The notes under the pieces: generated by a model
Told to the model about the DNA's origin: nothing
Database searches by the model: none
The model's input: only the letters and a program-made list of their open reading frames with translations
Source of the DNA: an uncultured Candidatus Saccharibacteria bacterium
GTDB lineage: Bacteria; Patescibacteriota; Minisyncoccia; Phycocordibacterales; PALSA-1337
Length of the DNA stretch: 64,000 nt
NCBI GenBank assembly: GCA_964492835.1
Contig: CAZBLC010000001.1
Span: 19,596-83,595 of the forward strand
Direction: 5' to 3'
Program-made: the position numbers and the translations under genes
Part shown: piece after piece, positions 9,152-36,812 of the stretch
Position numbering within the stretch: the stretch's first letter is position 1
How the letters are laid out: each line of letters begins with the position of its first letter

Positions 9152-10396
9152 CTATTTGTTATACCAATAGACTGTATCTTTCACATATCTGTCCATATTA
9201 AAAACTTTTTTTACTCTTTCATAACCTGCCTTTCCTAACCTATTTCCATATTCATTATCTGAAAGTATAGAATATATTGCCTCGGCAAACATTTCTATGT
9301 TATTTGGGTTAATAATGAGACCAGTAATCTTATCTAGAATAATTTCTGGAGTACCACCAAAACACGTACCGACAACTGGTTTTGACGCAGCACCTGCCTC
9401 AATATTGAAGAGATTGAATGCGTCAAAATATACAGATGGCGTGATACAGACATCGCATACTGCATATGCTTTTTTCATATCCTCACGAGACAGCCACCCA
9501 GTAAAGACTATGTTATTTATAACACCAATATCTTTTGCATACTTTAATAAATATTTTGAATAGTCATTTGGGGTACCTGCTATTAGTAATGCTATTGATG
9601 TATCTTTTTTAATTAAAAGACTTAGTGCATCAATAGCGATCTTTCCTCCTTTTGCTTCACTCAATCGGCCGCCAAATAAAATTACCTTTGAATTATTTAA
9701 ATTTAATTTATTACTAAATTCTCCATTATCATCATCATTAGCTATGGTACTATCAGTACTTATTCCATAATAAACCGTTTCTACATTTACTATTCTATTT
9801 TGATTTAATGCGTCTTTTAATCTATTCGATATTGCAAATATCTTTTTGGGATATTTATTCAAACAATATCTTATGAATAAATTCCTTAAAGGATTATATC
9901 TTTTCTTTGCTGTCATTAAATTTTTAATAAATCCAACTTTATAAGAAAATTTATTTTGTACCTCAAGATTTCTCTTATCATAGAAATTTATGAGCTTTCC
10001 GTAATTAAACGCCATCGCATCATGTGTTGTTAGGAATAACTTATTTGTAAATCTTCTTGCTAAGATTAGGGTATAGTATGAAAGATAGTGATGAACATTA
10101 TGAGCGTGTATAACTTCAGGTTTTATTTGATTAATAAGTTTCTTTACCTTACCAACTGACCTGTAATTATACAGACTGAAATAACCTGACAATCTTCCGT
10201 CGTAGTCTATATATAGGTTGTAAACTTTCATTCCTTCCACGATCTTCTCACCAGCATCAGATTTATTTTGTACGGTAGTAATTATATGAAGTTCGTGACC
10301 AGCACTAGCCAGCCCACAAGCGAGGTTGTAAGTTATTATACCCGCTCCTCCAAAGCTTTTTGGTGGAAAGTCATCCGATAAAAATAATATTTTCAT
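9152..10396 (-). CDS. Glycosyltransferase family 4 (GT-B)
   Basis: MKILFLSDDFPPKSFGGAGI N-terminus and C-terminal GT4 EX7E-type motif region (FGGTPEIILD). Confidence 0.8.
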   Translation of the reverse strand: MKILFLSDDFPPKSFGGAGIITYNLACGLASAGHELHIITTVQNKSDAGEKIVEGMKVYNLYIDYDGRLSGYFSLYNYRSVGKVKKLINQIKPEVIHAHNVHHYLSYYTLILARRFTNKLFLTTHDAMAFNYGKLINFYDKRNLEVQNKFSYKVGFIKNLMTAKKRYNPLRNLFIRYCLNKYPKKIFAISNRLKDALNQNRIVNVETVYYGISTDSTIANDDDNGEFSNKLNLNNSKVILFGGRLSEAKGGKIAIDALSLLIKKDTSIALLIAGTPNDYSKYLLKYAKDIGVINNIVFTGWLSREDMKKAYAVCDVCITPSVYFDAFNLFNIEAGAASKPVVGTCFGGTPEIILDKITGLIINPNNIEMFAEAIYSILSDNEYGNRLGKAGYERVKKVFNMDRYVKDTVYWYNK

Positions 10397-11040
10397 TATT
10401 TTTCAAAAATAAAACACCAACCTAAGGTATTTTTTCTATTTGCTTCACTTTTATCAAACGTATCGAGCAACATCATAAACTTACCATAAATCAAGATAAA
10501 CTTTCCCAGAACTCTTCCCAGTATTGGTCTCTTATACAATCTTAGTTTATCTATTAAATATCTTATTAAAATCTGTGCTCTTGTGGTAAAAAACCCTCCT
10601 CTCTGCTCATAAACAATAGTTTTAAATCCTATGTTTTCAAACATACTTATTAGACCGAATTTTGTGTATCTAAAGAAATCGTTTGGTTCTTCATGAAGTT
10701 CGTTCATCTGTGGTGCAGTTACCAATATGTGACCGCCGGTCTTTAAAATTCTATAAAACTCTTCTACAGCTTCAAACGGCTTATTTAGATGCTCCATGAC
10801 TTGGGTACAAACTATAGAATCAATGCTATTATCTCGCATGGGTATGCTTTCAGCTCGACCAACGACATCTACTCCAGGAAATTTCTCAACATCCATGGTT
10901 ATATATTTACTACAAGGAAAAATTCCTTTATACCTTCCACCTTCTCCGGCACCAATATCAAGAGTTTCACCAACAATATATTTAGAATATTTTATGACTT
11001 GCTGCCTCAATATTATTCTTTCTGGTTGAAAAATATACAT
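10396..11040 (-). CDS. Class I SAM-dependent methyltransferase
   Basis: Motif I LDIGAGEGG. 214 aa Methyltransf_11-like. Confidence 0.75.
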   Translation of the reverse strand: MYIFQPERIILRQQVIKYSKYIVGETLDIGAGEGGRYKGIFPCSKYITMDVEKFPGVDVVGRAESIPMRDNSIDSIVCTQVMEHLNKPFEAVEEFYRILKTGGHILVTAPQMNELHEEPNDFFRYTKFGLISMFENIGFKTIVYEQRGGFFTTRAQILIRYLIDKLRLYKRPILGRVLGKFILIYGKFMMLLDTFDKSEANRKNTLGWCFIFEK

Positions 11041-11044
11041 AATT

Positions 11045-11893
11045 TTACTTTGTTACAGTACCCAATTTTTCTTTTAATATTTTTCTATATACTCCCTCTT
11101 CCCAATATCTGTAATCCTGTCTCTTTAGACCAACAAAAAATTCAATCATAAGATCATAAAGTGCCCTTAGAGATGCGTATCTGAACCCCTCTCTCTCTTT
11201 CCTCATATTTTTAGAAAAATAAATCTTTTTAAATTTATATTGGAATTTCCACAAACCTCGTAGTAAATGACCAAAGAATGATTTTGTCTTTGGTGTTCTT
11301 TCAATCTCCAAACTCAAATAATAAAAGCGACTGTGCGGCATAAGTAACCAATGTTTCTCCCTCTGGCAATGCCATACTGGATATGGGAAGATGATAGGTT
11401 TAAAACTATGCATCAAATGCTCATGTACTCTGGAATCAGAATCAGTACCGTGAAAAACTTCATTTCCACGCCTAGTAATTCTTTCAATTGATTCTTCAAA
11501 GCTAGTTAGCAAATCATCACACCTTACAATAGTTACCACCTCTGGTCTGTTCTTAATTAAAAATGGTCTGATATTTTCTTTAAAACTTTCACTAAGCCTT
11601 TCGTCAGCATCAAGCACCAAAATATAATCCATGGTACATTTTGACATTACAAAGTTCTTTGCAAGCCCAAAATGAAAATCTCCTGGAGACTTATAATGAT
11701 GAAGTGCTATCTTTGTATTTCCCTTATTTATATAACTTTGAACTATCTGAACAGTGTCATCTAGTGATCCAGTATCTGAAATAATTATTTCATCAGCAAA
11801 TTCTAGAAGTGATGAAATAAATCCGTCAATACGCTTTGCTTCAGTGTTTACAGTTGCACAAACAGAAATAGTCGGTGTTACGATTTTATTCAT
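11045..11893 (-). CDS. Glycosyltransferase family 2 (GT-A)
   Basis: N-terminal GT2 pattern ISVCATVNTE...IIISDTGSLDDT and the DXD-like LDADE. Confidence 0.75.
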   Translation of the reverse strand: MNKIVTPTISVCATVNTEAKRIDGFISSLLEFADEIIISDTGSLDDTVQIVQSYINKGNTKIALHHYKSPGDFHFGLAKNFVMSKCTMDYILVLDADERLSESFKENIRPFLIKNRPEVVTIVRCDDLLTSFEESIERITRRGNEVFHGTDSDSRVHEHLMHSFKPIIFPYPVWHCQREKHWLLMPHSRFYYLSLEIERTPKTKSFFGHLLRGLWKFQYKFKKIYFSKNMRKEREGFRYASLRALYDLMIEFFVGLKRQDYRYWEEGVYRKILKEKLGTVTK

Positions 11894-11937
11894 ATAAATA
11901 TCATATCAAAATAAGGATAATATTCAATCTTTAGCTA

Positions 11938-12438
11938 TTATGGTATGGATTTTAAAATGTAATCTAGATCGATCACATTACTCTCTATCAAAATAGCATT
12001 TTTGCACCCCGCTCTCATTGCAGCTTCTATATCTGTTTTGCTATCCCCTATCATATAACTTGCCTTAATATCTATATTTAATTCTTCCACTGCTAAATGA
12101 AAAAGACCTGGTTCTGGTTTTCTACATATACACTTTTCGTCTTTATGGTGTGCACAAAAATAGAATGATCTGATGGATGTACCTATTCTATCTAAATCCC
12201 TATTAATCTTTGTGTGGAGTCTTTTAACAAACTCCTTAGACATCTTTCCTTTTGCAATCCCTGCTTGGTTACTTATAACCACAACAACATAGCCTGCGGA
12301 ATTGATCTTTTTTACTAGCTTTTTAGCATTTATATTCCACTTAAATTCGCTTATTTTTTTTACGTAATCATGTTCTGCTGGTTTTTTATTTAGGACTCCA
12401 TCTCTATCCAGAAAAACTGCTCTTATTTTATTATTCAT
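11938..12438 (-). CDS. gmhB: D-glycero-D-manno-heptose 1,7-bisphosphate phosphatase (HAD-IIIA)
   Basis: AVFLDRDGVLN HAD motif I, GmhB-type Cys/His zinc cluster (CAHHKDEKCICRKP), ~166 aa. Confidence 0.8.
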   Translation of the reverse strand: MNNKIRAVFLDRDGVLNKKPAEHDYVKKISEFKWNINAKKLVKKINSAGYVVVVISNQAGIAKGKMSKEFVKRLHTKINRDLDRIGTSIRSFYFCAHHKDEKCICRKPEPGLFHLAVEELNIDIKASYMIGDSKTDIEAAMRAGCKNAILIESNVIDLDYILKSIP

Positions 12439-12447
12439 ATTTCGAAT

Positions 12448-13455
12448 TTATGCTTTTTCTTGATCAAAGACAATTTCAACACCTTTATTATCAAAACCTA
12501 CCTCAATTTCAGCAAAATTATTTAGTCTATTTTTGTTTGCGTAGTCTATGACCGACCTTCTAATATCTTTATGTTTATTTTCTGGAGCTAAAAAAAGCAC
12601 ACAGCCTCCACCACCAGCACCAAGTACTTTTCCTCCCCATGCACCATTTTTTATCCCTAACGAATACAGATCATCTATAGTGCTATTTGAAATTTCATCC
12701 GCAAAAGTCTTTTTTAGAGTCCAGCTTTTGTGTAGAATATCTCCAGCTTTTTTAAAATCTCCCTTTTTAATTGCTTCACTGAAATGTGATACGAGAGAAG
12801 CTATTTCCTTGTATCCATCGATCTTTTTATCGATATTTTTAGTTTGATTGGATAATACACTGGAAGCATCCCTAGTTATTCCAGTAAAGAAAAGCAGAAG
12901 GCTTTTTTCAAATTTATCTTTATTCTTTTTAGATATAGCTAATGGTTCAATAGCTACTTTTCCACTTTTTTTAAATTTATAAATATTGAGTCCTCCATAA
13001 GATGCAGCATACTGATCTTGTTTGCCTATTGGTTCCTTTACAAGATCAATTTCTACCGTGCAGGCCTTTTCAGCCAAGCTCTGCTTATTTATTTTTTTAC
13101 CATTGAGCAGATGGAGTCCCTTAAGCAAGGCTACGGTAAAACTAGAAGATGAACCGAGTCCTGTCCTAGCTGGAATCGACGCGAAGGAGCCAATTTCTAT
13201 GTTATTATTTATTCCAAGAGTCAATAAGATTTCACGAACCCTGTTATGTATCAAATCTTTTGGGTGATCGACTGTTTCAGTTGTTGAATATTTAACTATT
13301 ACTTTATTTACCAAGGGTGTGTGCTTAATAGCCAAGTATACATATTGATTTATAGTAGTTGAAACAACACAGCCTCCGTGTTTCTTATAAAAATCTGGAA
13401 GGTCTGTACCCCCGCCAATAAAACTTATTCGAAGTGGTGCTCTTACTAAAATCAT
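12448..13455 (-). CDS. hddA: GHMP-family sugar kinase, D-glycero-alpha-D-manno-heptose 7-phosphate kinase-like
   Basis: HddA-like N-terminus LRISFIGGGTDLPDF, GHMP ATP-binding motif PARTGLGSSSS, 335 aa. Confidence 0.75.
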   Translation of the reverse strand: MILVRAPLRISFIGGGTDLPDFYKKHGGCVVSTTINQYVYLAIKHTPLVNKVIVKYSTTETVDHPKDLIHNRVREILLTLGINNNIEIGSFASIPARTGLGSSSSFTVALLKGLHLLNGKKINKQSLAEKACTVEIDLVKEPIGKQDQYAASYGGLNIYKFKKSGKVAIEPLAISKKNKDKFEKSLLLFFTGITRDASSVLSNQTKNIDKKIDGYKEIASLVSHFSEAIKKGDFKKAGDILHKSWTLKKTFADEISNSTIDDLYSLGIKNGAWGGKVLGAGGGGCVLFLAPENKHKDIRRSVIDYANKNRLNNFAEIEVGFDNKGVEIVFDQEKA

Positions 13456-14132
13456 TATTTATTATTATTTAATCTATTTATATCCTCTGGTGAAGTGAGT
13501 TGTGTATGCATTTCATCTCCTATAACTGCAAAAACTTTATGATCTTTTGCAAATTTTTTCATTAAATCCGTGAAATAGTATTCGTTTTTTACTTCATGTA
13601 ACTCAGGCTCATAATTAAAAATGTCAGAATTCATAATCATAAACCCGTTTGTAGCAAGGTTCGATGTAGGATTTCTAGGCTTTTCAATTACATCGATTAT
13701 CTGGTTTGTACTATCAATAGTCGCAATACCAACATTTTTTGGATCAGGAACGAAGTAGCACAGCCATGAAAATTCATATTTCAAACAATCTTCTATTTCT
13801 TTTTTTGTTAAAACATCATCTGCATATGAAACTGCAAATCTCTCTCCTTCTTTAATTAATTCCCTTGTTTTAATAAATCCTAGAGCGTTTCCGTTTTTTT
13901 CGCCTTCAACATAAGTAATCTTCCTTCCATAAAGTTCGTTACCACAATACTCTTTTATTTTTTCGCCTAAATATTTTACAACTAAAATAACTTCATCAAT
14001 CTCATTTGGCAAAGAAAGAAATAGATGATCTAGTGCAGTCTTACCTCTATAGACTACAAGTGGCTTTGGTGTGGTTAGTGTTATCGGTCTCATTCTCTGT
14101 CCTTCTCCGGCTGCAAGTATTATAAGCTTCAT
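13455..14132 (-). CDS. hddC: Sugar-1-phosphate nucleotidyltransferase (D-glycero-alpha-D-manno-heptose 1-phosphate guanylyltransferase-like)
   Basis: MKLIILAAGEGQRMRP nucleotidyltransferase motif. Contiguous with hddA and gmhB. Confidence 0.75.
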   Translation of the reverse strand: MKLIILAAGEGQRMRPITLTTPKPLVVYRGKTALDHLFLSLPNEIDEVILVVKYLGEKIKEYCGNELYGRKITYVEGEKNGNALGFIKTRELIKEGERFAVSYADDVLTKKEIEDCLKYEFSWLCYFVPDPKNVGIATIDSTNQIIDVIEKPRNPTSNLATNGFMIMNSDIFNYEPELHEVKNEYYFTDLMKKFAKDHKVFAVIGDEMHTQLTSPEDINRLNNNK

Positions 14133-14156: not shown

Positions 14157-14966
14157 CTATTCTATGGCAACTCCTTTCCTAATAGCAATAAAATTGGCAT
14201 ACATTATCTTTTCGTATTCTGGACAATATTTAACTTTTTCAAGTGTAATAGGCTTCACTTTGTATATGTCATATTCATTTTGAATAAAAAAATCGTAAAT
14301 ATCCTTGAAGAATACTCTTGAGTATATTGCGGCATTACCAAACTCAAATTGAACCATATCAATTGATTTATCTTTAAATAAGTTCTTTGCTCCCTGAAAA
14401 ACAAACAACTCATGGCCTTCTGTATCGACCTTTAATAGATCAATATGCTTTATATTTTTTCGTTTACAATACTCGTCTAGAGTATCTGTTTTTACAACTT
14501 TTTTTTCAATATTATAATTTTCTTGTTCCATATCATAAAATGAATTTAACTCCGGTGAGTCTTTATTTATATACATCTCTCTATTTCCAATAGTCTCTCC
14601 AAGTGCAATATTTTCTAAGTATATATTCTTACTTGTCGAGACATTTTTCATTAACTTACCAAATGTAGTACTGTCTGGTTCAAAGCAATATACTTTGATA
14701 GTATCTCTATAAGAAAGAATATGCTTAACATAGTCTCCAACATTCGCCCCGACATCGAAAACAATTTTTATATCCTTTTTTTTAAACACCAAATCCAATA
14801 AACGATATTCGCCGTTTGTTATCATATTTGAATTGTGTTCCCCTCTACAAAAATCCACATATCGAGATGCTAATGAATAAATGAATGGTCTATATATCGG
14901 TCTTTTATAATTAAAAAGCCCTCTATTGATAAAATATATTATAATTAATTTAATTTTTTTGATCAT
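14157..14966 (-). CDS. FkbM-family methyltransferase
   Basis: Methyltransf_21 motif FDVGANVGDY, 269 aa. Confidence 0.75.
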   Translation of the reverse strand: MIKKIKLIIIYFINRGLFNYKRPIYRPFIYSLASRYVDFCRGEHNSNMITNGEYRLLDLVFKKKDIKIVFDVGANVGDYVKHILSYRDTIKVYCFEPDSTTFGKLMKNVSTSKNIYLENIALGETIGNREMYINKDSPELNSFYDMEQENYNIEKKVVKTDTLDEYCKRKNIKHIDLLKVDTEGHELFVFQGAKNLFKDKSIDMVQFEFGNAAIYSRVFFKDIYDFFIQNEYDIYKVKPITLEKVKYCPEYEKIMYANFIAIRKGVAIE

Positions 14967-14967
14967 G

Positions 14968-16128
14968 TTACCAAAATATTACTTCCGAATTTATATTTTC
15001 TAATATATCTCTTTTTATTTCTTCATTATAGATACCAGCTTTTATAATAACATTTACCTTACCTTTCCCTTTTAGAATCTTAGGGTGTTCTACCATAAGT
15101 TTTGTTCCATAAAGTCTTTTCTTATTTTTCACCTGACTATTATCGAGCAATCCGACTATTTTATCAACTTTTAATCCAAACTGGATTAGTGTTTGTGAAA
15201 AAATGTGTGCTCCGAAGAGATATACCGGTTCGTTTGAACTACCAATCTTCATGTTTAAATCATCAATCATCTCTTTATGATAATTTATATAATCCATAAA
15301 AAGTTTTTTATATTGAATGTATTTATTTGGCAATGTAGATACATCCTCCACAACGTCCGTCTTCTCTGTTGCATAGAAAATACTATGTGGATCTCCATAA
15401 TACTCTTTTTCTAAGATCTTAAAACCCATACTCTGGAGTATATAATCTGTTATTTCTTCAGTAAGAAAGACAGTATGTTCAAAATTTAAGCAATTTGTAA
15501 ACTTCTTATCCAGCATTGGTATCATATTTGGAAAAGTAAATATATGTTTATCACCCCTTTTAAGAAATGAATTTATTTGCTTTAAAAATTTAAATGGTTC
15601 GTATGTATGTTCAAATACATGTGAATGTACGATAGTATCTATTCCTTCATCTAGTTTAAATTTGTCATCAAACCAACCCTTAATTAATTTAATCTTAGGA
15701 TTTGTGATATATTGTGCATTTGGTTCAACAGTTGTCCATTCTACGTCTGGAATTACCGTCCATAGATTCCTAGCTATATGGTCATGTGCGCCACCTATCT
15801 CCAGAACTCTCTTTGGGTTAAATTTTGAAATAAATTTAGCAAAAGCTACATAATGATCCTGCCAAACCTTTCCAACGCCATCATTATGTTGATCTAAATA
15901 CAATATATCAAGGGGTAGGAGCTTCTGAAGCTGTATAAGACCTGTTTCTGGGCATATATCCCAAATCATATCGGACACTATATCTTCATCTTGTGGTTGC
16001 TCTACACAACCCATGAATACTGGAAAATCCTTGAATTTATGTAGAGTTTCTAGATTTTTCTTATTTGATAATAGGCTTTTATCTCTAATGATATAGTTAG
16101 TATTCCTTTTCATAGATTCATTGTACAC
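14968..16128 (-). CDS. SAM-dependent methyltransferase with a C-methyltransferase-type C-terminal domain (sugar C/O-methyltransferase candidate)
   Basis: Central VLEIGGAHDHIARNL SAM motif. The C-terminal region (VYLFGAHIFSQTLIQFGL...VNVIIKAGIYNEE) resembles the C-terminal domain of NDP-hexose C-methyltransferases. Confidence 0.55.
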   Translation of the reverse strand: MYNESMKRNTNYIIRDKSLLSNKKNLETLHKFKDFPVFMGCVEQPQDEDIVSDMIWDICPETGLIQLQKLLPLDILYLDQHNDGVGKVWQDHYVAFAKFISKFNPKRVLEIGGAHDHIARNLWTVIPDVEWTTVEPNAQYITNPKIKLIKGWFDDKFKLDEGIDTIVHSHVFEHTYEPFKFLKQINSFLKRGDKHIFTFPNMIPMLDKKFTNCLNFEHTVFLTEEITDYILQSMGFKILEKEYYGDPHSIFYATEKTDVVEDVSTLPNKYIQYKKLFMDYINYHKEMIDDLNMKIGSSNEPVYLFGAHIFSQTLIQFGLKVDKIVGLLDNSQVKNKKRLYGTKLMVEHPKILKGKGKVNVIIKAGIYNEEIKRDILENINSEVIFW

Positions 16129-16155: not shown

Positions 16156-16872
16156 TTAACCCTCTTTTATTACCTTCTCTGTCTCTATTAGTGCTTGAGG
16201 ATTACCAGTATCTAGCCACGTTTCGAAAGGAACCCATTTGAGCTTTGTGCCCTCTAACAAAAGCTTTTCTATAACAGAGACGTCTCCTAGCGCCTGATTA
16301 TTTCGGTCATTTTTATATAGACTTTCAACAGCCCCCCAAAATTTTTTATAATCATGTATTCCAGTCATGCCAATATGTATAGAATCAAAATCTGTAATTC
16401 CTTTATCATTTACTTTTGCTAAATAACCATCTTTAATTTTATGACTTCTGTATTGCCTTACATCCATCTTTGTTGTCTCTGGGTCAATGACATACCCAAT
16501 AACCCAATCTTCACTTGGTTCTGGTATCTTTTCAACTACAATGGTATCGCAAGCATGAAAAATAAATGGGCACTGTAGATTATCCTTTGCACAGAGCATT
16601 GAATATAGTAGACTACTTCCGTCGCCAATATATTTATCCACTATCACGAACTCAAAATTATAATCTTGGTAATTCTTCAAAAGATAATTTTTTACTTGAT
16701 CCCCATGATATCCAAGTGTAATGACAAATATAGAATCCTTTGGGTATGAATTAAAAATATACTCAATAGTTGGCCTACCATTTATTTTAACTAGTGCTTT
16801 ATTCGTTGTTTTTGTAAGTTCTCCCAGACGTGAACCGGTGCCTGATGTTGTGATAAGTATTTTGTATTCCAT
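16156..16872 (-). CDS. LicC/IspD-like sugar-phosphate (or phospho-alcohol) nucleotidyltransferase
   Basis: N-terminal ILITTSGTGSRLGELTKTTNKALVKINGRPTIEY matches the (A)GxGTRL...PKxL nucleotidyltransferase motif. 238 aa. Confidence 0.65.
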   Translation of the reverse strand: MEYKILITTSGTGSRLGELTKTTNKALVKINGRPTIEYIFNSYPKDSIFVITLGYHGDQVKNYLLKNYQDYNFEFVIVDKYIGDGSSLLYSMLCAKDNLQCPFIFHACDTIVVEKIPEPSEDWVIGYVIDPETTKMDVRQYRSHKIKDGYLAKVNDKGITDFDSIHIGMTGIHDYKKFWGAVESLYKNDRNNQALGDVSVIEKLLLEGTKLKWVPFETWLDTGNPQALIETEKVIKEG

Positions 16873-16910
16873 GTATTTAAATGGTATTACTTAATATGAG
16901 TAATTTATAA

Positions 16911-17477
16911 TTATTTCTTACCTCCCCACTCTCCACCTTTTTCTACTTTCAAATTAAGTAAATCTAACTTTTTAAAAAATTTTTCCATTATGTGCAAGCA
17001 TGCTTCTGCAACCGCTCCATGTCCACCCGAAGTCTTTGTCACGTAGTTCGCATATTCTTTTATTGCTGGAAAAGCATTTGCCGGGGCAATGGAGTATCCA
17101 ACCTTATCAAAAACCATTGCATCAAATATTCCATCACCCATATATACAGTTTCCTCTAGTTTGAATTGACTTCTAATCCAATCGATTCTTTCAAATGTAC
17201 TTACCTGAAAAAGCGGTAATTTCATATCTTGTTCAATTCTTTTCTGTGTAATTGGAAATCCTTTTTTATCGCCAGTTACTGCAATGATATTTAAAAATGG
17301 TTTTACAAGCAGCAATGCGTCATGATCATCTGGACCAAAAATCTTTGCTGACTTACCTTCTAAGGTGTAGTGAAACTGGCCGTCAGTAAAAACTCCATCT
17401 ACATCAAGAATAAAATTTTTTATATTTTTTTTCATATTATTTTTCATTAAGTGCTTTATATAGATTATATTTACCAA
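16911..17477 (-). CDS. KdsC-like HAD-IIIA phosphatase
   Basis: FILDVDGVFTDGQFHY is near-identical in pattern to the KdsC motif (LDVDGVLTDG), with a GDGIFD-type motif III. A likely start at MKKNIKNF removes the overlap with the upstream gene. Confidence 0.65.
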   Translation of the reverse strand: MVNIIYIKHLMKNNMKKNIKNFILDVDGVFTDGQFHYTLEGKSAKIFGPDDHDALLLVKPFLNIIAVTGDKKGFPITQKRIEQDMKLPLFQVSTFERIDWIRSQFKLEETVYMGDGIFDAMVFDKVGYSIAPANAFPAIKEYANYVTKTSGGHGAVAEACLHIMEKFFKKLDLLNLKVEKGGEWGGKK

Positions 17478-18678: not shown

Positions 18679-18702
18679 GTTATCAAACTATACTAAATCA
18701 GA

Positions 18703-19401: not shown

Positions 19402-19412
19402 TTAAAGTATAA

Positions 19413-24808: not shown

Positions 24809-24811
24809 ATA

Positions 24812-29523: not shown

Positions 29524-30744
29524 TTAATTGTCACATATTATATTCAATTCCCTAGATAGATTCGAATCTATTATATTCATGTCGAATAACTGCTTAGACT
29601 TGTTTCTAGCTGCCTTTCCTAATCTGATACGTAAATCATAATCATTTACCAATTTATCAATATTATTTATGTATTCCTGCGCAGTTTTTGACTCTAAATA
29701 GTCTGCGTTTTTAACAAAAGGATAATCAGCAATTCCTCTATCCGATGTGATTACCGGGAAACCCCTCATCAATGGTTCAAAAATCTTTTGTTGCATACCT
29801 GCCCCAAAGAGTGAAGGAACGATAGCAATATCCATATCTTTTAGAAAAGTATTCAAATCAACAATAAACCCTCTATATATAACATTCCTTGGAAAAACAT
29901 TAAGTATACTTTCTGGTAGTTTTGTTCCTGTTATATTTATAATTACTCTATTGCCATATTTTTCTAATAATGCTGGGGCTATATTTTTAATAATAAAAAG
30001 TAGTGCTTGCTTATTATGAGATACATTATATGTAGATCCCATAAAGAATATATTTATATTTTTACTCTCCTTATTTGGTATATACTCAGGTAAATAATGT
30101 AAACCTCTCAGTGGTAGATTTATTGTCTTTCTTGCTCCAATTCTCTTGTAAATCTTTTCTTCCTGTGGTGTTATTGAGCATATTAGATCACTAGCTCTTG
30201 CTACTTTTTTTTCTGACAAAAATTTTGGTATTGATTTCAAATAATTTAAAATAGATCTACCATCTTCATCTAAAAAATGTACTGCTTCGTAGTTTAAAGA
30301 TCTGGTAACAATAGGTATTTTATTTTTTTGGGCGACTTGATAAAGTGGCCATAAATATGAGTATTCAAACCACACAATGTCTGGCTTCCAAATATCTATG
30401 GTATTACACATAAGATTGATCATTTCTGGATCAGTATATTCAAATGCAGCACCATCTAAATATGAAAAATGTTTTAGTCTCTTCATGATTATTTTTATTT
30501 TTTGAAGTAAAGTCTTATCAGATAAATTATATTTATATGACACAGTTTGAACATCAATATTTCCAACTGATTTTGAAAAATTACTGATATCTGAATTGCT
30601 TTGATTTTTCTTTCTCTTGGCGATAACTCTCACCTCGTATCCTAAACGTACAAGCTGGCGTATTCCATTAGCGCGATCAGATTGTTCTGCTCCATTTTCT
30701 GGATAAGGTACAACTGGGCAAATAATCAATATCTTATTTTTCAT
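29524..30744 (-). CDS. Glycosyltransferase family 4
   Basis: GT-B architecture, C-terminal FEPLMRGFPVITS motif. Confidence 0.7.
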   Translation of the reverse strand: MKNKILIICPVVPYPENGAEQSDRANGIRQLVRLGYEVRVIAKRKKNQSNSDISNFSKSVGNIDVQTVSYKYNLSDKTLLQKIKIIMKRLKHFSYLDGAAFEYTDPEMINLMCNTIDIWKPDIVWFEYSYLWPLYQVAQKNKIPIVTRSLNYEAVHFLDEDGRSILNYLKSIPKFLSEKKVARASDLICSITPQEEKIYKRIGARKTINLPLRGLHYLPEYIPNKESKNINIFFMGSTYNVSHNKQALLFIIKNIAPALLEKYGNRVIINITGTKLPESILNVFPRNVIYRGFIVDLNTFLKDMDIAIVPSLFGAGMQQKIFEPLMRGFPVITSDRGIADYPFVKNADYLESKTAQEYINNIDKLVNDYDLRIRLGKAARNKSKQLFDMNIIDSNLSRELNIICDN

Positions 30745-31778
30745 TTATTTAAATTAGTAATAATTCTAGGGATTAATAATTTTAATGAGTGATTTTCATT
30801 TACGTATTTTACATAATAATCATTTATCGATTTATTTTTACTATCAAGCATTAACACCTTGTTTATTGATTTTGCTAAATCATCTGCGTTTCTATTTGTA
30901 AAGAGAAAAGGGTGGTTAGAAAATATCTTTTCGAAGGCTGGATTTGAAGTAATAACAATAGTACCTGAAGCCATAGCTTCCAGTATTGCCTTATCGAGAC
31001 TTCCTGTATCGCTCATATTCAAAAAAAGATCTGCAGAATTTAAAATATCACAAAGTTTATCTTGTGAAACTTTACCCTTCATTTCAAATGTGTTGTTTGG
31101 TGATGTTTCAATCTTTTTATTTAATTTTTCTACATATTCGACATCTCTATACATAACTGCCTCACCCCAGAACTCACATGTAATTTTTCTATTACTTTTT
31201 ATTGTATTAACGGCATCAATCATAAATTCGTAGCCTTTCGATTGTGTAAATCTACCTACTGAAACAATCTTAAATTCATTACCGTTTTTATTGAAATTTA
31301 GTGGTTTAAAAATATCAACATCGATACCATGTCCCATTACGTTTATCTTATTACTTTTAAGTCTGAAACTTTCTTTTGAGGCAGTAAATATTTTATCGAC
31401 TATTAAAGTTGCAATTCTTAATGACTTTGTAACACTTCTATGTGTATACCATAGAGAAATATTTTTATTATATAACTTCCAAAAAACGCCACCGAGGATT
31501 ACATATATTTGATTCATATGCACAAAGACACTATCGTAATTTTTACGTTCTATCCAAATATATTTATAAAAATTAATAATATATCTAATCCTAGATTCCC
31601 TAATTTCTTTACCAAGCGATAGGACTTTTACATTATTAGGTAACTCATTTTTACCTTTATACAAGCAAATAACTACAATTGATTCACAATTTTTAGAAAA
31701 AACATCTATCCATCTATAGAAAAATCCCAGTATTGGATCGTCTTTGTCTACTTTTTGTGTAATGATCAATAATTTCAT
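30741..31778 (-). CDS. Glycosyltransferase family 4
   Basis: GSLDKAILEAMASGTIVITSN motif. Confidence 0.7.
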   Translation of the reverse strand: MKLLIITQKVDKDDPILGFFYRWIDVFSKNCESIVVICLYKGKNELPNNVKVLSLGKEIRESRIRYIINFYKYIWIERKNYDSVFVHMNQIYVILGGVFWKLYNKNISLWYTHRSVTKSLRIATLIVDKIFTASKESFRLKSNKINVMGHGIDVDIFKPLNFNKNGNEFKIVSVGRFTQSKGYEFMIDAVNTIKSNRKITCEFWGEAVMYRDVEYVEKLNKKIETSPNNTFEMKGKVSQDKLCDILNSADLFLNMSDTGSLDKAILEAMASGTIVITSNPAFEKIFSNHPFLFTNRNADDLAKSINKVLMLDSKNKSINDYYVKYVNENHSLKLLIPRIITNLNK

Positions 31779-32635
31779 TTTCCGATTCTTTCTAAAAACT
31801 TCTTACTATATACTCCTCTCACTAAATCCATATCTTTTCCAGAATTGACCAGTAGTTTTACATTTATATTTCGTATTGTCTCGAGCATTTTTACATGTTC
31901 ATCTAAAACCTTGCTTTTTTTAGTTATTTCAATAAATGCCTCGAAATCTTTTATAAAACAATCTCCGCCGGCACCCCTACCTTTACCATCAAGTGGGTTT
32001 AAATATCGATGTGCCATGAGAGGGTCTGCCATAAAAGCAGATTTTAGATTGTCCCATTTCATATTATTATTTTTAGCTAAATCCAATAATAGATTGGAAT
32101 AAACTACCTGTATATATCCATTCACATTATGGCCATACTTAATAAACTCTGCTTCATTTGAGGAGCAAATAAGTTCATACGGGGCCTTTGCCAATACACT
32201 CATTATCATTTTAGCTTTAGTTCTGTATAAAGTAGTATTTTTTGGCATACCAATAATATTGCGTTCTGGATTTTCAGCATCGTATGCAGCAGTTTTTCTA
32301 CTTAAAAATTCAGGAGAATGGAAAATAAATAGATCTTTATATTTTTCCTGCAACTCAATGGTTTTACCAAAAATAAGAGTAGATTTTATAACTACAATTT
32401 TACCCTTACTAATAGTAGACAGTGCGCTACGCAAAAAACTATCATCAAAAATGCGATCTACGGTAGGAGTTGGTACAGCTACAAAAATAATATCAGCTGA
32501 GTTTATTATTTCCCTATTGTTGATATATTTTTTATCAAGGGAATATCGAATAACATCATAACCTCTCTTCTCAAAGTCATTCGCATAATTATAACCAACC
32601 CATCCTTGTCCGATAAATCCGATTTTCATTTTCAT
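31775..32635 (-). CDS. UDP-glucose/GDP-mannose dehydrogenase-family protein, short form lacking the C-terminal UDP-binding domain
   Basis: N-terminal Rossmann KIGFIGQGWVG, IFVAVPTPT, SPEFLSRKTAAYD (NPEFLREGxA-like) and the catalytic-Cys motif GGDCFIKDF (GGSCFPKD-like). Only 286 aa. Confidence 0.65.
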   Translation of the reverse strand: MKMKIGFIGQGWVGYNYANDFEKRGYDVIRYSLDKKYINNREIINSADIIFVAVPTPTVDRIFDDSFLRSALSTISKGKIVVIKSTLIFGKTIELQEKYKDLFIFHSPEFLSRKTAAYDAENPERNIIGMPKNTTLYRTKAKMIMSVLAKAPYELICSSNEAEFIKYGHNVNGYIQVVYSNLLLDLAKNNNMKWDNLKSAFMADPLMAHRYLNPLDGKGRGAGGDCFIKDFEAFIEITKKSKVLDEHVKMLETIRNINVKLLVNSGKDMDLVRGVYSKKFLERIGK

Positions 32636-33591
32636 TTTGTTATATATGACTTTACCGTTTTTTCCAATCCTTCATCAAAGGATATCTCTGGATTATAACC
32701 AAGAATTATACGCGCCTTGTCTATATTAGCAAAGCTATTCTTTACATCACCCTTTCTTTCAGGCAAATACTTTATATGAATAGATTTGCCAAATATTTTA
32801 TTAATTTTACTTACCATATCGTTTAGAGAAACAAAACTTCCATACGAAGCATTGAATACCTCCCCAAAACCTTCTTCTACTTTAAGTGCACAAATATTTG
32901 CATCAACAACGTTTTTAATAAAGGTGAAATCTCTAAAATTTTCACCGTCACCGTATATTTCTGGAGATTTGTCCTCATTAATTAATTTAATAAACTTAGG
33001 AATTACAGCTGAATATGTTGAGTTTGGATTTTGTCTAGGACCAAAAACATTGAAATAGCGAAGTCCGATGGTTTTCAATCCATACAATGAGGTAAATATC
33101 TTAGCATAATATTCCATTGATAATTTCTGTAACGCGTATGGGGAAAGTGGATCTGGTATCATAGCTTCTGTTTTGGGGAGTGTTTTGGTGTTGCCATATA
33201 CAGAACTAGACGAAGCATATATTACTCTATCTACTTTTGCATGATGTGCAGCAATAAAAACACTTAGCGATCCGGTTGAGTTTGCCATATGGGTTTCCAT
33301 AGGCATTTCTATACTTCTCGGGACCACATTTAATGCTGCTTCATGTAATACAGCGTACGCTCCTTCAAAAATCTTTTTCAAAGCGTCTGTATCAATTATA
33401 TCAGTCTTATGAAATTCAATCTTATCTCTAACACCATCAAGATTTTTTACATTTCCATTTGAAAGATTATCTACCACAACCACGTTCGCGCCGTCACTTA
33501 CAAGTTCATCGACTATATGTGAACCAATGAATCCGGCACCGCCTGTTACAACTATTTTTTTATCTTTTAAAAATTCTCTATTTTTTATCAT
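32632..33591 (-). CDS. NAD-dependent nucleotide-sugar epimerase/dehydratase (SDR; UDP-GlcA/UDP-GlcNAc 4-epimerase-like)
   Basis: VTGGAGFIGSH Rossmann motif and the catalytic YxxxK (YALQK). 319 aa. Confidence 0.85.
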   Translation of the reverse strand: MIKNREFLKDKKIVVTGGAGFIGSHIVDELVSDGANVVVVDNLSNGNVKNLDGVRDKIEFHKTDIIDTDALKKIFEGAYAVLHEAALNVVPRSIEMPMETHMANSTGSLSVFIAAHHAKVDRVIYASSSSVYGNTKTLPKTEAMIPDPLSPYALQKLSMEYYAKIFTSLYGLKTIGLRYFNVFGPRQNPNSTYSAVIPKFIKLINEDKSPEIYGDGENFRDFTFIKNVVDANICALKVEEGFGEVFNASYGSFVSLNDMVSKINKIFGKSIHIKYLPERKGDVKNSFANIDKARIILGYNPEISFDEGLEKTVKSYITK

Positions 33592-34640
33592 ATATTTTTT
33601 AAAATTTCATTAGCTACACTTTTTACTGAAAAATCAGCAATACTTGCTCCTGCTTCCCTTGCGATACCAACATCGGTTGAAACGATTTTACACCCTGCTG
33701 CTTGTGCTTCTTTAAACACCATTCCATACCCTTCATAGAAAGAAGTATTTAAAAACACATCACATCCTTTATAGTATGGAACTAGATCTGTTTGCCAGCC
33801 CTCAAATACCATTATATCCTCCAATTTTAGCTTATACGACAGTCTTTTTAGACTTTCTAGTCTTTTGCCGGAACCTACTATAACTAACCCTATATCACTG
33901 ATTTGTGCCTTTACGATCTCCATGGCTTTTATACCTAACTCTATATTCTTTTCATCCTCTATACGTGAAGCCATTAGGATGATCTTTTTGAATTGTGGGT
34001 ATTTTTGTTTAAGGTCGAAACTTGGTGTTGTTGTCTTTATATATTCAACATTTACATCAATTGGTTTAACAATTATCCTATCCTTATCTATCTTTCTTGA
34101 TACCAATGAATCCGCAATTCTATTAGACACCACTCGTATTACTTGCGCATGAGGGATTGTAAATCGAGAGATGAAAAGTCTAATTCTATTAATCAATGCA
34201 TTGATATATCCAATTTTAGGACTAATGAAATATGGACTATATAGATCTGTATGTATTTGTAGTAGCAATTCGGAATACTTTTTTAGATTAGCTAAGCATT
34301 TACCAACCAGAGCTGTCTCAAATACATCCTGACAACTAACTAAAACTAGTTCATCTTTATCCACCTTCTTTAATATCTTTTTGCCAATCTTACAAGCATC
34401 ACTTACGTAGTTTAGTCTTACAATAGAGTTTGTAGAGTATATTGTACAGTTATCAGCTATACTTATTGGCTCATAGTTTTTTGTTGAAAAAACTATTATA
34501 TGTAGTTCCTTGTACAACTTTGAGTATTCAAGCATTCTCGCTCTTACTGAACTCTTTTCATTTAGGACAAGTCTATCTGTAGACACCATTACAGCAATAT
34601 AATTTATATATGTTTTATATTCAGTATTATATCTTTCCAT
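33588..34640 (-). CDS. Glycosyltransferase family 4
   Basis: EGYGMVFKEAQAAGCKIVSTDVG motif. Confidence 0.7.
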   Translation of the reverse strand: MERYNTEYKTYINYIAVMVSTDRLVLNEKSSVRARMLEYSKLYKELHIIVFSTKNYEPISIADNCTIYSTNSIVRLNYVSDACKIGKKILKKVDKDELVLVSCQDVFETALVGKCLANLKKYSELLLQIHTDLYSPYFISPKIGYINALINRIRLFISRFTIPHAQVIRVVSNRIADSLVSRKIDKDRIIVKPIDVNVEYIKTTTPSFDLKQKYPQFKKIILMASRIEDEKNIELGIKAMEIVKAQISDIGLVIVGSGKRLESLKRLSYKLKLEDIMVFEGWQTDLVPYYKGCDVFLNTSFYEGYGMVFKEAQAAGCKIVSTDVGIAREAGASIADFSVKSVANEILKNI

Positions 34641-35634
34641 AAATAGAAATTATTTCTTTTCCAATATCACTCCATGTATGTGTCCAAGTAAATCTCTTTA
34701 TCTTCTCTGCTTGCATGTCTCTGTTCTTTCTGTCAGACATCCATACTATCTTTTCTACTATATCTTTTTCATTCATCGGGTCTACAAAAATTGCACAATC
34801 CTTAACTCTCTCTGATATTCCAGTTTCTTTAGTTAGGATGAATGGAGTACCTACTCTTATTGCATCAAATATCATATTTGGACTTATATCTCCTATTGAG
34901 GTAAGGATAACGGCATATGATCTACGCATTCTCTCTTGGAAGTTATCATATACTGCTTTTGTTGTATCGAATTCTATAGGTTCTGTAACTTTAGTTTGAG
35001 CAATTTTAAATGTTTTTTTTAGCATATCTATATTCTTCCACACCAGCTCTCTTGTTCCAGCAACAAATACTCTGTTCTCTGGTTGTATCTGTTCTTCTCT
35101 TGCACCACAGAAGTTCTCTACTATCTTACTCTTTCTTGAATCAAGCTTATACGCTTTCTCGAAAATATTCTTTTGCCATTCTGTGCTGTATATTACAGTA
35201 CTAGCATTTCGGAGTGCATCTCCACCAAGTTTGTATACTAGTTTCTCCTTTCTGCTTAGTTTGTTTAGAGAGGTGTAATAGAAATCTTTGAACAGGACTA
35301 GCTCTCCTGTTCTTTCAGTATATGACTCCCATAGAAAATCTCCTCCAGTTCGTACGATATACTTCTTCCTCATTATCTTACATGCATACATTGTAGGCAC
35401 TGCAGCACTCCATGTATCAAGTACTAGTATCATATCTGCATTCCATCCTTTTCTAAATATCTTAAGGAAAAATAGGATGTGTCTTATGAAAGTAGGAAAA
35501 GCTCTTTCCCAACGGTAGGCTGCAACCTTAACATCATGTCCTTCTCCCTTCCATGTCTCGTATAGGTTACGAGCATATTGAGCCGGTCCTCCTATATCTG
35601 GAGGATATATACCTGTTGAAATTAAGATCTTCAT
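34627..35634 (-). CDS. Glycosyltransferase (GT-B, GT4-like)
   Basis: MKILISTGIYPPDIGGPAQYARNL N-terminus typical of GT4 N-domains. Confidence 0.6.
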   Translation of the reverse strand: MKILISTGIYPPDIGGPAQYARNLYETWKGEGHDVKVAAYRWERAFPTFIRHILFFLKIFRKGWNADMILVLDTWSAAVPTMYACKIMRKKYIVRTGGDFLWESYTERTGELVLFKDFYYTSLNKLSRKEKLVYKLGGDALRNASTVIYSTEWQKNIFEKAYKLDSRKSKIVENFCGAREEQIQPENRVFVAGTRELVWKNIDMLKKTFKIAQTKVTEPIEFDTTKAVYDNFQERMRRSYAVILTSIGDISPNMIFDAIRVGTPFILTKETGISERVKDCAIFVDPMNEKDIVEKIVWMSDRKNRDMQAEKIKRFTWTHTWSDIGKEIISIYGKI

Positions 35635-36812
35635 ATTACCTTTAAGAATACCTCATTTTTCATATCATTTGCAATGATATTCCATTCATACTTCTCTTTG
35701 ACCATTTCCATAGCATTCTTAACGATATAGTCTCTAGATTCACTATCCTTTATTAACTTCTCTACTTTCTGAGCAATACTGCTAGGGTTTTGTACTTCAC
35801 ATAATAGTCCTGTCTCTCCATCCTTAAGGAAATCTAATATTCCCCCAACTGGAGTAGCTATAACTGGTATACCAGCTGCCATAGCTTCGATGTATGAATT
35901 ACCAAATCCTTCAGAAAGTGATGGTCTTATAAATATATCTGAAACATGTAGATATTGTGGCATATCCTTATGTGGTACGTATCCTAGAAATATCACTCGA
36001 TTCTCTAGACCAAGAGTTTTTACTTTCTCTTTTAGCTCCACTTCCTGATACCCAGTACCTAGTATTAAAAATTTAACATTTGAAGGTAGGTATTGCATGC
36101 TTGATATGATATCTCCGACAGCATTCTTAACTACTAGTCTTGAGGTTGTGATTAGGAATATATCATCTATCTTTTTTCCAAGTTTCTGTTTCAATATTTC
36201 TAGTTCTGTATGTGGTTTTCTTGTAGAGAAGAGATTAAAATCTACTGCATTTGGTATTACTGTTACAGGACACTTCGCTTTCATGTCGAGTGCCCAATCT
36301 GCTAGATATTTAGATATTGTTTGTATGTGATCTGCTTTTGTAAATATTTTTTTAAATAGCGGATATACAAACATAGCTCTTCTCTTGATGTATGGTATTG
36401 GATCACCTTCTTGTAGAGTCAGGATGAATGGTATTTTGGGATTTAGCATTTTAAATATAACAGCAGCAAATGAGTTATATGTAGCCATCATTGACCATAT
36501 AGCGTCATACTTGTTCTGCTTATGTAATTTAATTGCCTTTACTAATGCAGTAATTGGCATTAGATATTTGTTTAGGTGTAAATACCAAGGTAGAGAATCT
36601 GATGAATTCTTTTGTGTTCCTGTATATCCAACTCTATATACATTTATGTTCCCTATCCTCTCGTAACTAGGTAATTTAGAATCTAAATGCAGAGTCACCA
36701 TATCAAACTGTATTTCCTCATTTGGAATCCTGTCAGTTATCTCCTTTATAGCAACCTCTGCTCCCCCTATAAATTTTGGATAGTATACTAAAGAAAATAT
36801 TAGTATTTTCAT
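35631..36812 (-). CDS. Glycosyltransferase family 4
   Basis: MKILIFSLVYYPKFIGGAEV N-terminus and SEGFGNSYIEAMAAGIPVIATPVGG motif. Confidence 0.8.
   Translation of the reverse strand: MKILIFSLVYYPKFIGGAEVAIKEITDRIPNEEIQFDMVTLHLDSKLPSYERIGNINVYRVGYTGTQKNSSDSLPWYLHLNKYLMPITALVKAIKLHKQNKYDAIWSMMATYNSFAAVIFKMLNPKIPFILTLQEGDPIPYIKRRAMFVYPLFKKIFTKADHIQTISKYLADWALDMKAKCPVTVIPNAVDFNLFSTRKPHTELEILKQKLGKKIDDIFLITTSRLVVKNAVGDIISSMQYLPSNVKFLILGTGYQEVELKEKVKTLGLENRVIFLGYVPHKDMPQYLHVSDIFIRPSLSEGFGNSYIEAMAAGIPVIATPVGGILDFLKDGETGLLCEVQNPSSIAQKVEKLIKDSESRDYIVKNAMEMVKEKYEWNIIANDMKNEVFLKVI

Follow-up and report, generated by a model that had tools for sequence, protein, structure and literature searches.

The predicted O-oligosaccharyltransferases WsaB and WsfB contain a Wzy_C domain, and both WsfB and PglL carry C-terminal tetratricopeptide repeats (TPR) (PMC2943079). 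In the S-layer glycan locus of Paenibacillus alvei an asparagine-synthase homologue, wsfA, lies beside wsfB; O-methylated S-layer glycans have been described and a heptose-containing S-layer glycan is cited (PMC2943079). For the Saccharibacteria, a study of the TM7x pilus terms the glycosylation processes 'unexplored' (PMC11623550). The 64-kb stretch of contig CAZBLC010000001.1 described here, referred to as the window, carries between positions 9152 and 36812 a 28-gene surface-glycan biosynthesis locus of an ultra-small, low-GC Saccharibacteria (TM7, Patescibacteria) bacterium. It is a Wzx and Wzy_C surface-glycan or protein-glycosylation cluster, a known kind of locus, in a phylum of undescribed glycobiology.

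As with other Patescibacteria, the lifestyle of the Saccharibacteria is one of attachment to host bacteria and, to our knowledge, their surface cover is essentially unknown. The genomes of Saccharibacteria are about 1 Mb in size, of which the locus would take up about 28 kb. The bacterium is assigned to the Saccharibacteria because the nearest species-representative relatives of a marker protein of the locus (19413-20843), at 65-70% identity, are all from 'uncultured Candidatus Saccharibacteria' metagenome-assembled genomes (MAGs). The tmRNA in the window is bacterial.

A preliminary description of this DNA had proposed a dedicated glycan-biosynthesis locus of about 28 co-directional genes, with tiny gaps or overlaps, in a small, low-GC bacterium. 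This is borne out, the closest loci being those of Saccharibacteria MAGs. The open reading frame (ORF) listing has 28 successive minus-strand ORFs in the interval, spaced from -113 to +44 nt, with 44 nt as the widest gap; their lengths total 27,657 nt, overlaps counted twice, against an interval of 27,661 nt. GC content is 0.28-0.34 inside the locus and 0.35-0.40 in the flanks. No terminators were found between the genes from 38499 down to 9152, and the sole strong minus-strand terminator nearby (38592-38573) is 3' of a pilin gene. A promoter scan of the region was uninformative, with fewer matches than in shuffled sequence.

Pfam and NCBIfam scans, which took in about 60 ORFs of the window, confirmed most of the gene calls made earlier. 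Eight family 4 glycosyltransferases (GT4) are above the Pfam gathering cut-offs (9152, 20850, 23618, 26624, 29524, 30741, 33588, and 35631, genes being named here by their lower coordinate), while a ninth, 34627, falls short of the cut-off with each of the models (27.0, 24.4, and 23.3 against 28.5, 27, and 26.4 bits). The one GT2 enzyme that had been called is present at 11045 by Pfam, and a further GT-A-fold domain lies within the 19413 protein; in all, the locus encodes ten or eleven soluble glycosyltransferases. There are four S-adenosylmethionine (SAM) methyltransferases by Pfam (10396, 14157, which is of the FkbM family, 14968, and 25699), where four or five were predicted. The NodB deacetylase (22701) has its Pfam match, and the AsnB-type amidotransferase (27684) passes both Pfam and TIGR01536, the latter with 446.9 bits against a cut-off of 267.

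The census of small-molecule kinases rises from two to three, these being the GHMP kinase 12448 and the APH-fold kinases 17437 and 24812. The two APH-fold kinases are below the Pfam cut-off; in both, the HGDxxxxN catalytic loop is invariant and an Asp-rich metal-binding motif is present downstream. Likewise, there are three precursor modules rather than two nucleotide-sugar supply modules: a heptose-like trio (11938-14132), a sugar-activation cassette (16156-20843), and a Ugd-like dehydrogenase with an epimerase (31775-33591). The second of the supply modules originally described is not a standard one but a widespread, uncharacterised cassette. None of the 28 locus enzymes has convincing transmembrane (TM) segments; the polytopic proteins are Wzx, the Wzy_C+TPR protein, and a DedA-PAP2 fusion.

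The search for a characterised locus, or a paper, to which this locus corresponds found none, in keeping with the preliminary description. The literature search was of open-access sources, which makes the absence a weak one, and gave no account of the locus, of the cassette, or of nucleotide-activated tagatose. To hold that the combination of features is without a known match was, however, too strong, since an AsnB homologue (wsfA), Wzy_C with TPR, O-methylation, and heptose all occur in Gram-positive S-layer glycan systems.

Predicted export and transfer genes

The genes by which the glycan would leave the cytoplasm, and be passed on, are at the 3' tail of the locus.

7868-9151, plus strand: Wzx-type flippase (MOP), Polysacc_synt 45.7 against 28.2 bits, about 10 TM segments
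5627-7858, minus strand: Wzy_C membrane protein with C-terminal TPR, Wzy_C 50.7 against 31.7 bits, TPR_19 48.4 bits
3572-4843, minus strand: fusion of DedA (VTT) and PAP2, VTT_dom 57.5 and PAP2 61.5 bits (Pfam)

The Wzx and Wzy_C+TPR genes had been placed at the head of the locus. Both pass Pfam, but they are outside the 28-gene interval and at the opposite end, with Wzx convergent with the operon and abutting its last gene. Homologues of Wzx adjoin the locus or the cassette in five related loci (L005, L007, L009, L028, and L046, related loci carrying L-numbers), and in L005 there is a Wzy_C homologue 3' of Wzx. A topology sketch of the Wzy_C+TPR protein gives about 10-12 TM segments, a 79-aa loop at residues 276-354, a last TM segment at 457-475, and a 268-aa TPR tail. 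The DedA-PAP2 gene is two genes from Wzy_C. Its NCBIfam matches are to UptA-like (51 bits) and undecaprenyl-diphosphatase-like (28-31 bits) models, all below cut-off, and the protein probably recycles the polyprenyl-phosphate carrier, with flipping and pyrophosphatase activity in one protein.

Taken together, the domain content makes it probable that this is a composite cell-surface glycan locus, the product of which is a lipid-linked, Wzx-flipped glycan that is passed to the Wzy_C+TPR enzyme. On the cytoplasmic side of the membrane, an oligosaccharide would be assembled on a polyprenyl-phosphate carrier; neither this carrier nor the initiating enzyme has its genes in the window. Tailoring would include O- and/or C-methylation, N-deacetylation, uronic acid amidation, and perhaps phosphorylation. 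Wzx would flip the oligosaccharide across the membrane, after which the Wzy_C+TPR enzyme would transfer it to a surface protein, or polymerise or ligate it into a wall-associated polysaccharide. From its domains the enzyme is a candidate O-oligosaccharyltransferase, ligase, or polymerase; by analogy with WsfB and PglL the first of these roles is preferred here, tentatively, and that of polymerase or ligase for a wall-associated polysaccharide comes next in plausibility.

Several observations weigh against this scheme. No initiating phosphoglycosyltransferase (WbaP/Bac_transf or WecA/MraY) is among the roughly 60 ORFs scanned, although it may lie elsewhere in the genome, and no acceptor protein was identified in the 64-kb window. 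The Wzy_C sequence does not sort polymerases, ligases, and O-oligosaccharyltransferases from one another, and the topology sketch is compatible with either side of the membrane for the TPR domain. The heptose, uronic-acid, and several kinase assignments are under curated cut-offs, and the Ugd-like protein is without its C-terminal domain. The adjacency to type IV pilus genes that would favour a pilin as the target is limited to the four closest relatives, and it is possible that the core and distal parts of the locus, described below, serve two products.

The alternative that the locus makes a Wzx/Wzy-dependent polysaccharide (capsule, exopolysaccharide, or secondary wall polymer), with Wzy_C+TPR as its polymerase or ligase and no protein glycosylated, is a reasonable contender. 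Wzy-dependent pathways are typified by the pair Wzx and Wzy_C, the low GC content and module swapping recall O-antigen and capsule loci, and TPR domains are also present in polysaccharide export scaffolds (reference cited in PMC2943079). However, by Pfam there is no chain-length regulator (Wzz/PCP), LCP-type ligase, or export component in the window, the presence of at least 10 glycosyltransferases would imply an unusually long repeat unit, and Wzy_C with a C-terminal TPR is the architecture of the O-oligosaccharyltransferases WsfB and PglL. Transfer to a surface protein is retained as the preferred role.

Conserved core and variable distal part

The locus is a composite, in which a core of an ATPase gene and four GT4 genes, found across the Saccharibacteria, is joined to a variable, modular distal part. 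The genes of the core, and those that interrupt it in the window, are as follows.

36817-38499, minus strand: VirD4/TraD/HerA-like P-loop ATPase, TrwB_AAD_bind 38.5, T4SS-DNA_transf 35, and DUF87 31 bits (Pfam)
35631-36812, minus strand: GT4 (Pfam)
34627-35634, minus strand: GT4, sub-threshold (Pfam)
33588-34640, minus strand: GT4 (Pfam)
32632-33591, minus strand: short-chain dehydrogenase/reductase (SDR) epimerase, best NCBIfam model TviC at 226 bits, below cut-off
31775-32635, minus strand: short Ugd-like dehydrogenase, TIGR03026 107.5 against 189.8 bits
30741-31778, minus strand: GT4 (Pfam)

The co-directional run opens with the ATPase gene, which ends in a stop codon 4 nt short of the first glycosyltransferase gene. 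The protein is soluble, with no TM segment and a C-terminal tail rich in Pro and Lys. No functional rationale for coupling such an ATPase to glycosyltransferases is apparent to us. In a genome scan, relatives came to light with an alignment as the query and not with one protein sequence, and a metagenome scan with the ATPase gave 80 loci, of which the 48 contigs of at least 9 kb were used to compare gene order. In about 36 of these 48 the ATPase is followed, in order, by homologues of 35631, 34627, 33588, and 30741, and only a few carry the distal genes. The fact that the core is so widely kept while the distal 20 kb recurs in few relatives is the reason for considering the locus to be composite. 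This comparison of gene order across related genomes had been called for in the preliminary description, and it is conservation of the core that was found, with little conservation of the distal part. Such swapping of distal modules between relatives is as expected for an exposed, diversifying surface structure.

The core series in the window is interrupted by the epimerase and Ugd-like genes. The Ugd-like protein, of 286 aa, retains the N-terminal and central domains and the catalytic-Cys motif GGDCFIKD; it is the UDP-binding C-terminal domain that is absent. Homologues with 46-49% identity are present in five related contigs (L115, L125, L137, L149, and L153). Together with AsnB, the Ugd-like protein and the epimerase would point, with low confidence, to a uronamide.

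The same comparison bears on whether there is one glycan here, as was originally claimed, or two, since in the 48 contigs the core is conserved and the distal genes joined to it vary, and two products are possible. That the two parts are unrelated systems that happen to adjoin, the core making a housekeeping glycolipid or wall glycopolymer and the distal, Wzx-linked part a separate strain-variable glycan, is less probable. Such an arrangement would account for a core in about 36 of 48 contigs with distal genes in a handful, for the recurrence of the distal block with Wzx independently of the core, and for a distant relative (L094) in which the genes 3' of the ATPase are a different glycosyltransferase-rich set of six GT4, GtrA, a GT47-like enzyme, and a GT2. 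Against it, there is no gap of more than 44 nt and no terminator between the parts in the window, both parts are made up of soluble GT4 enzymes, and there is no second flippase or initiating enzyme.

Upstream of the ATPase, on the same strand, are genes for a type IV pilus.

38617-46277, minus strand: type IV pilus cluster (Pfam), with PilM (45144), PilB (41892), PilT-like (40438), and PilC (39222) genes
38617-39081, minus strand: Ser/Thr-rich pilin of 154 aa, followed by the terminator at 38592-38573

It is improbable that the locus is a pilin glycosylation island, its glycan destined for this pilin by way of a TfpO/PglL-like Wzy_C enzyme: the pilus operon and Ser/Thr-rich pilin are directly upstream, Wzy_C enzymes glycosylate pilins in Pseudomonas and Neisseria, and pilin glycosylation is predicted but not shown for TM7x (PMC11623550), but a strong terminator ends the pilin gene, the Wzy_C gene is 30 kb away from it, and the linkage of ATPase and glycosyltransferases persists without pilus genes, which are found 5' of the ATPase solely in the four closest relatives among some 40-48 contigs, so that the pilus adjacency is clade-specific and this explanation was downgraded.

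In the distal part, the genes from 29524 down to 9152, with Wzx, are colinear in five related Saccharibacteria loci (L001, L005, L006, L007, and L037) with 35-85% amino acid identity (tblastn). Apart from the cassette, this part contains the following.

29524-30744, minus strand: GT4 (Pfam)
27684-29498, minus strand: AsnB-type glutamine amidotransferase, Asn_synthase 247.8 bits and GATase_7
20850-27679, minus strand: block colinear in the same five loci (Pfam and tblastn), with GT4 (26624), methyltransferase (25699), APH-fold kinase (24812), GT4 (23618), NodB deacetylase (22701), a 266-aa protein (21904), and GT4 (20850)
14157-14966, minus strand: FkbM methyltransferase (Pfam)
13455-14132, minus strand: nucleotidyltransferase of the heptose-like trio, HddC 58.9 against 300 bits, the seventh-best NCBIfam model
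12448-13455, minus strand: GHMP kinase of the trio, HddA 160.7 against 600 bits, the top NCBIfam model
11938-12438, minus strand: HAD-IIIA phosphatase of the trio, GmhB 154.6 against 178 bits, the top NCBIfam model
11045-11893, minus strand: GT2 (Pfam)
10396-11040, minus strand: methyltransferase (Pfam)
9152-10396, minus strand: GT4 (Pfam)

AsnB has orthologues in L001 and L007 (58-67% identity), with more distant homologues (47-50%) in L084, L134, and L157. In the kinase 24812, the motifs HGDxxxDN and DxD are invariant. The 266-aa protein (21904-22704, minus strand) is kept beside NodB in nine loci, with the motif WEACxWGKxNG...FKMSFG, and matched no Pfam family. It could not be confirmed as a FemAB-like aminoacyl transferase, for which the match to 9wqw, an aminoacyl-tRNA-dependent peptide synthase, has an E-value of only 0.44; this was kept as a lead. 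The terminal block 9152-11893 is colinear, with Wzx, in L005 and L007.

Heptose had been proposed as a component of the glycan and is plausible from the trio at 11938-14132, in which HddA and GmhB are the top models for the kinase and phosphatase. However, the HddA, GmhB, and HddC matches are all sub-threshold, and the window gave no match to GmhA, the sedoheptulose-7-P isomerase. L001, L006, and L037 carry the trio, and L005 and L007 do not. The sugar isomerase (SIS) domain of the cassette was rejected as a substitute for GmhA, given that L037 has the trio without the SIS gene, and L005 and L007 have the SIS gene without the trio.

The putative sugar-activation cassette and other features of the window

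The remaining distal genes form a putative sugar-activation cassette, which may be the truly novel part of the locus, most of the rest being of an ordinary kind. The putative C-methyltransferase that accompanies it in the window is listed with it.

19413-20843, minus strand: GT-A domain fused to a PHI-like SIS isomerase
18703-19401, minus strand: Rpe, passing the Rpe equivalog cut-off
17437-18678, minus strand: LicA-like kinase with a degenerate nucleotidyltransferase remnant
16911-17477, minus strand: KdsC-like HAD phosphatase
16156-16872, minus strand: LicC-like nucleotidyltransferase
14968-16128, minus strand: TcaB9/TylC3-like sugar C-methyltransferase, by family-profile match

An alignment of the marker (19413-20843) found 79 species-representative loci, in at least 46 of which the genes for SIS, Rpe, nucleotidyltransferase, and HAD lie no more than a few kb apart; the kinase is there as well in almost every one. 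The cassette is usually a tight four-gene unit, the order of which is kept in many phyla. It is present, among other taxa, in many classes of Patescibacteria, in Bdellovibrionales, Bacteroidota, and Gamma- and Alphaproteobacteria MAGs, in Ignavibacteriota, Verrucomicrobiota, Chlamydiae, and Acidimicrobiaceae, and in a Nanoarchaeota locus (L045), truncated by the contig end, that has SIS, Rpe, and a fused nucleotidyltransferase-kinase. The canonical Firmicute HxlB loci (L071-L083), with 38-45% identity, are without it. No characterised member of the cassette was found, nor do any of the 1,421 homologues of its kinase at E <= 1e-10 have a characterised name.

Unsupervised clustering of the neighbours in 56 cassette loci, with ten of the recurrent clusters annotated, placed the TcaB9-like C-methyltransferase in 28, an SDR/Gmd-like protein in 26, and a GT-A domain in 22. 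Other glycosyltransferases, TylF-like O-methyltransferases, Wzx, and PMT-like GT-C enzymes are also among the neighbours. The recurrence of glycosyltransferases, methyltransferases, and Wzx as partners indicates that the cassette is a glycan-precursor module. In L003, on a 690-kb MAG contig (GCA_041485065.1, JBGPIV010000001.1 479133-500542), the cassette has as its neighbour not Wzx but an ABC transporter of the Wzm/Wzt type that includes a Wzt_C domain, which would mean that the cassette serves both export routes.

The SIS domain of 19413 is most like PHI (TIGR03127, 189 against 160 bits). The cassette kinase is most like LicA and the nucleotidyltransferase most like LicC, and the features of such a pair are present, namely the HGDxxxxN loop of the kinase and the GxGxR loop of the nucleotidyltransferase. 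Most other genomes have the two fused into a single protein of about 525 aa, the profile of which has LicC as its best match in the Protein Data Bank (PDB) (E 5e-10), and a triple fusion of nucleotidyltransferase, kinase, and phosphatase also exists (P0190). In the window about 100 N-terminal residues of the nucleotidyltransferase domain remain on the kinase 17437, the GxGxR loop having been lost, while an intact, separate nucleotidyltransferase (16156-16872) lies downstream. This looks like a nucleotidyltransferase-kinase fusion that is decaying in the lineage of the window and in L007.

Single-sequence PDB searches with the C-methyltransferase (14968), the kinase (17437), and Wzy_C gave no useful match. 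The family profile of 14968 matches the D-mycarose 3-C-methyltransferase 4rv9 (E 2.8e-10, residues 53-366) and TcaB9 (3ndi, E 1e-7), over an alignment that starts where the N-terminal region ends and takes in the SAM and C-terminal domains; conservation of the N-terminal Cys4 zinc site is not clear. Residues E217-H218 and H174, which are invariant, align with the 'DEH' and 'LCH' motifs of TcaB9. These aligned His and Glu-His residues we take to be catalytic in TcaB9-type enzymes.

An indication of what the cassette may make comes from the variants in which part of it has been replaced. A GatZ/KbaZ-like protein of about 335 aa is present in exactly the eight loci that lack SIS and Rpe, and in no others. 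All eight members match the family (best E 1.2e-7), and their profile matches E. coli GatZ (2fiq) with an E-value of 5.6e-5. One of the variants is L037, a Saccharibacteria locus in which the flanking genes are those that the window has too. From the sequence comparisons, this would be an in-place non-orthologous displacement of SIS and Rpe. GatZ and KbaZ are C4-epimerases that interconvert fructose-6-P and tagatose-6-P (PMC11907403), and it is the replacement of SIS and Rpe by such a protein in eight loci that suggests an activated tagatose-type sugar.

The cassette could thus be an undescribed, widespread route to a nucleotide-activated, ketohexose-derived (tagatose-type) sugar, although this is put forward as a possibility to be treated with reserve. 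The starting step would most likely be the conversion of fructose-6-P to tagatose-6-P. PHI would shift the carbonyl of fructose-6-P to C3, the Rpe paralogue would invert C4 of the resulting 3-hexulose-6-P, and PHI would return the carbonyl to C2; that Rpe could act on the PHI product is conceivable because C2-C6 of 3-hexulose-6-P correspond to the C1-C5 atoms of ribulose-5-P. SIS and Rpe would then be a two-enzyme fructose-6-P 4-epimerase, and the GatZ/KbaZ-like homologue is predicted to do the same in the eight variants. The KdsC-like phosphatase would free the sugar from its phosphate, the LicA-like kinase would re-phosphorylate it, and the LicC-like enzyme would nucleotidylate it to an NDP- or CDP-tagatose-type donor. 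The donor might optionally be C-methylated by the TcaB9-like 14968 protein, and the sugar would be transferred by the dedicated GT-A enzyme, which is fused to the isomerase in Saccharibacteria.

Two findings weigh against the tagatose-type route. The GatZ-like matches are weak, the single member with a full score reaching 24.8 bits where the gathering cut-off is 26.7, and the Rpe of the cassette scores as a bona fide ribulose-5-P epimerase, which makes a pentose route, for example from ribulose-5-P to arabinose-5-P, conceivable. Nor was any mention of CDP- or UDP-tagatose found in the open-access literature. The ribulose monophosphate pathway was rejected as an explanation for PHI with Rpe because there is no hexulose-phosphate synthase; no member of the HPS/OMPdecase family was found by Pfam among the scanned ORFs of the window, or among the recurrent clusters of the 56 cassette loci, ten of which clusters were annotated.

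The cassette may instead, though this too is doubtful, serve for the activation of a non-sugar head group or of a pentose, for example a phospho-alcohol substituent of the LicA/LicC type, or NDP-D-arabinose formed from ribulose-5-P by way of arabinose-5-P and free arabinose. The Rpe score leaves room for the pentose. As regards a head group, the kinase and nucleotidyltransferase are always linked to an isomerase, epimerase, and phosphatase, which makes a sugar, rather than choline, the probable substrate.

Homologues of the nucleotidyltransferase-kinase are also present in phage or viral records, where the matches are tangential, while none was found in the plasmid collection. Marine virus AG-345-E15 (L164; MH319741.1 16025-17566) has one of 45.6% identity, the rest of the cassette being absent. 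Enterococcus phage 9183 (L165; MT939241.1 29756-31731) has one of 22% identity beside a HAD hydrolase, in a cluster of thymidylate synthase, dUTPase, and dTMP kinase genes. This may point to a role in DNA modification.

The cassette is the part of the locus that could be truly new. If the tagatose-type, possibly branched-chain, reading were true, such a sugar would be present on bacteria of the candidate phyla radiation, DPANN archaea, Bdellovibrionales, Bacteroidota, and others, and there would be both a new nucleotide sugar and a new way to C4 epimerisation. The cassette is compact and widespread, and some four or five recombinant enzymes would be enough to study its chemistry directly. Taken as a whole, the locus is a concrete set of genes to seek in cultivable relatives, with its conserved core and a strain-variable distal part that fits a structure exposed to hosts, phages, and immunity.

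Elsewhere in the window, there is a tRNA-Ile with the anticodon UAU at 58513-58588 on the minus strand (ARAGORN; Rfam tRNA 70 bits), a means of reading AUA without lysidine that is uncommon among bacteria. A LAGLIDADG_3 homing-endonuclease-like ORF (54779-55840, minus strand) is directly upstream of a tRNA-Ser(GCU) at 54689-54777, which is called by ARAGORN and is not in the Rfam list at gathering score. Another tRNA-Ser (47767-47854, minus strand) has the anticodon ACT by ARAGORN, with an odd A34, and is overlapped by a mechanical ORF at 47203-47856.

Comparison with known systems

Individual parts of the locus resemble described pathways to differing degrees. The heptose-like trio, in having adjacent genes for a GHMP kinase, a HAD-IIIA phosphatase, and a nucleotidyltransferase, is like the GDP-D-glycero-alpha-D-manno-heptose pathway, but it is below the equivalog cut-offs, has no GmhA in the window, and is dispensable in two relatives. 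The C-methyltransferase 14968 is like the C-3-methyltransferases TcaB9, TylC3, and KijD1 over profile residues 53-366, with the His and Glu-His residues aligned; it differs in that the E-values are only 1e-7 to 3e-10 and the Cys4 zinc site is not clearly kept. Enzymes of the TcaB9 type need dTDP-4-keto-6-deoxy sugars from a 4,6-dehydratase, whereas the cassette is without a 4,6-dehydratase.

For the cassette, identity of its kinase and nucleotidyltransferase to LicA and LicC of Streptococcus pneumoniae is only about 15-17%, and there is no LicD-type transferase in the window locus. The GatZ/KbaZ tagatose route, which proceeds by phosphorylation, epimerisation, and dephosphorylation (PMC11907403), is matched by the GatZ/KbaZ-like protein of the eight variants and by the sugar-phosphate phosphatase. 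Unlike that route, the window uses a PHI-like SIS with Rpe, and re-activation to a nucleotide sugar is without a known counterpart.

The locus as a whole shares with O-antigen and capsule loci the presence of Wzx and Wzy_C, nucleotide-sugar modules, many glycosyltransferases, low GC content, and modular variation. It differs from them in having no Wzz/PCP, export machinery, or initiating transferase in the window, in a host that has no outer membrane or lipid A, in the fusion of TPR to Wzy_C, and in the ATPase that heads the operon.

The closest known analogue is the protein O-glycosylation (slg-type) cluster of monoderm bacteria, as judged by likeness to the wsf cluster of P. alvei, the wsa cluster of Geobacillus stearothermophilus, and that of Aneurinibacillus thermoaerophilus. 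There is no detectable orthology to these beyond domain families, and the cassette, NodB, and the APH-fold kinases are extra in the window locus. The slg clusters export by a Wzm/Wzt ABC transporter, where the window locus has Wzx, and they encode an initiating enzyme (WsaP or WsfP) and adjoin the S-layer gene, neither of which was seen in the window. What the two have in common is a monoderm host, a long run of soluble glycosyltransferases with methyltransferase activity, a lipid-linked glycan, an AsnB homologue in the locus and, as in WsfB, a Wzy_C enzyme with a C-terminal TPR.

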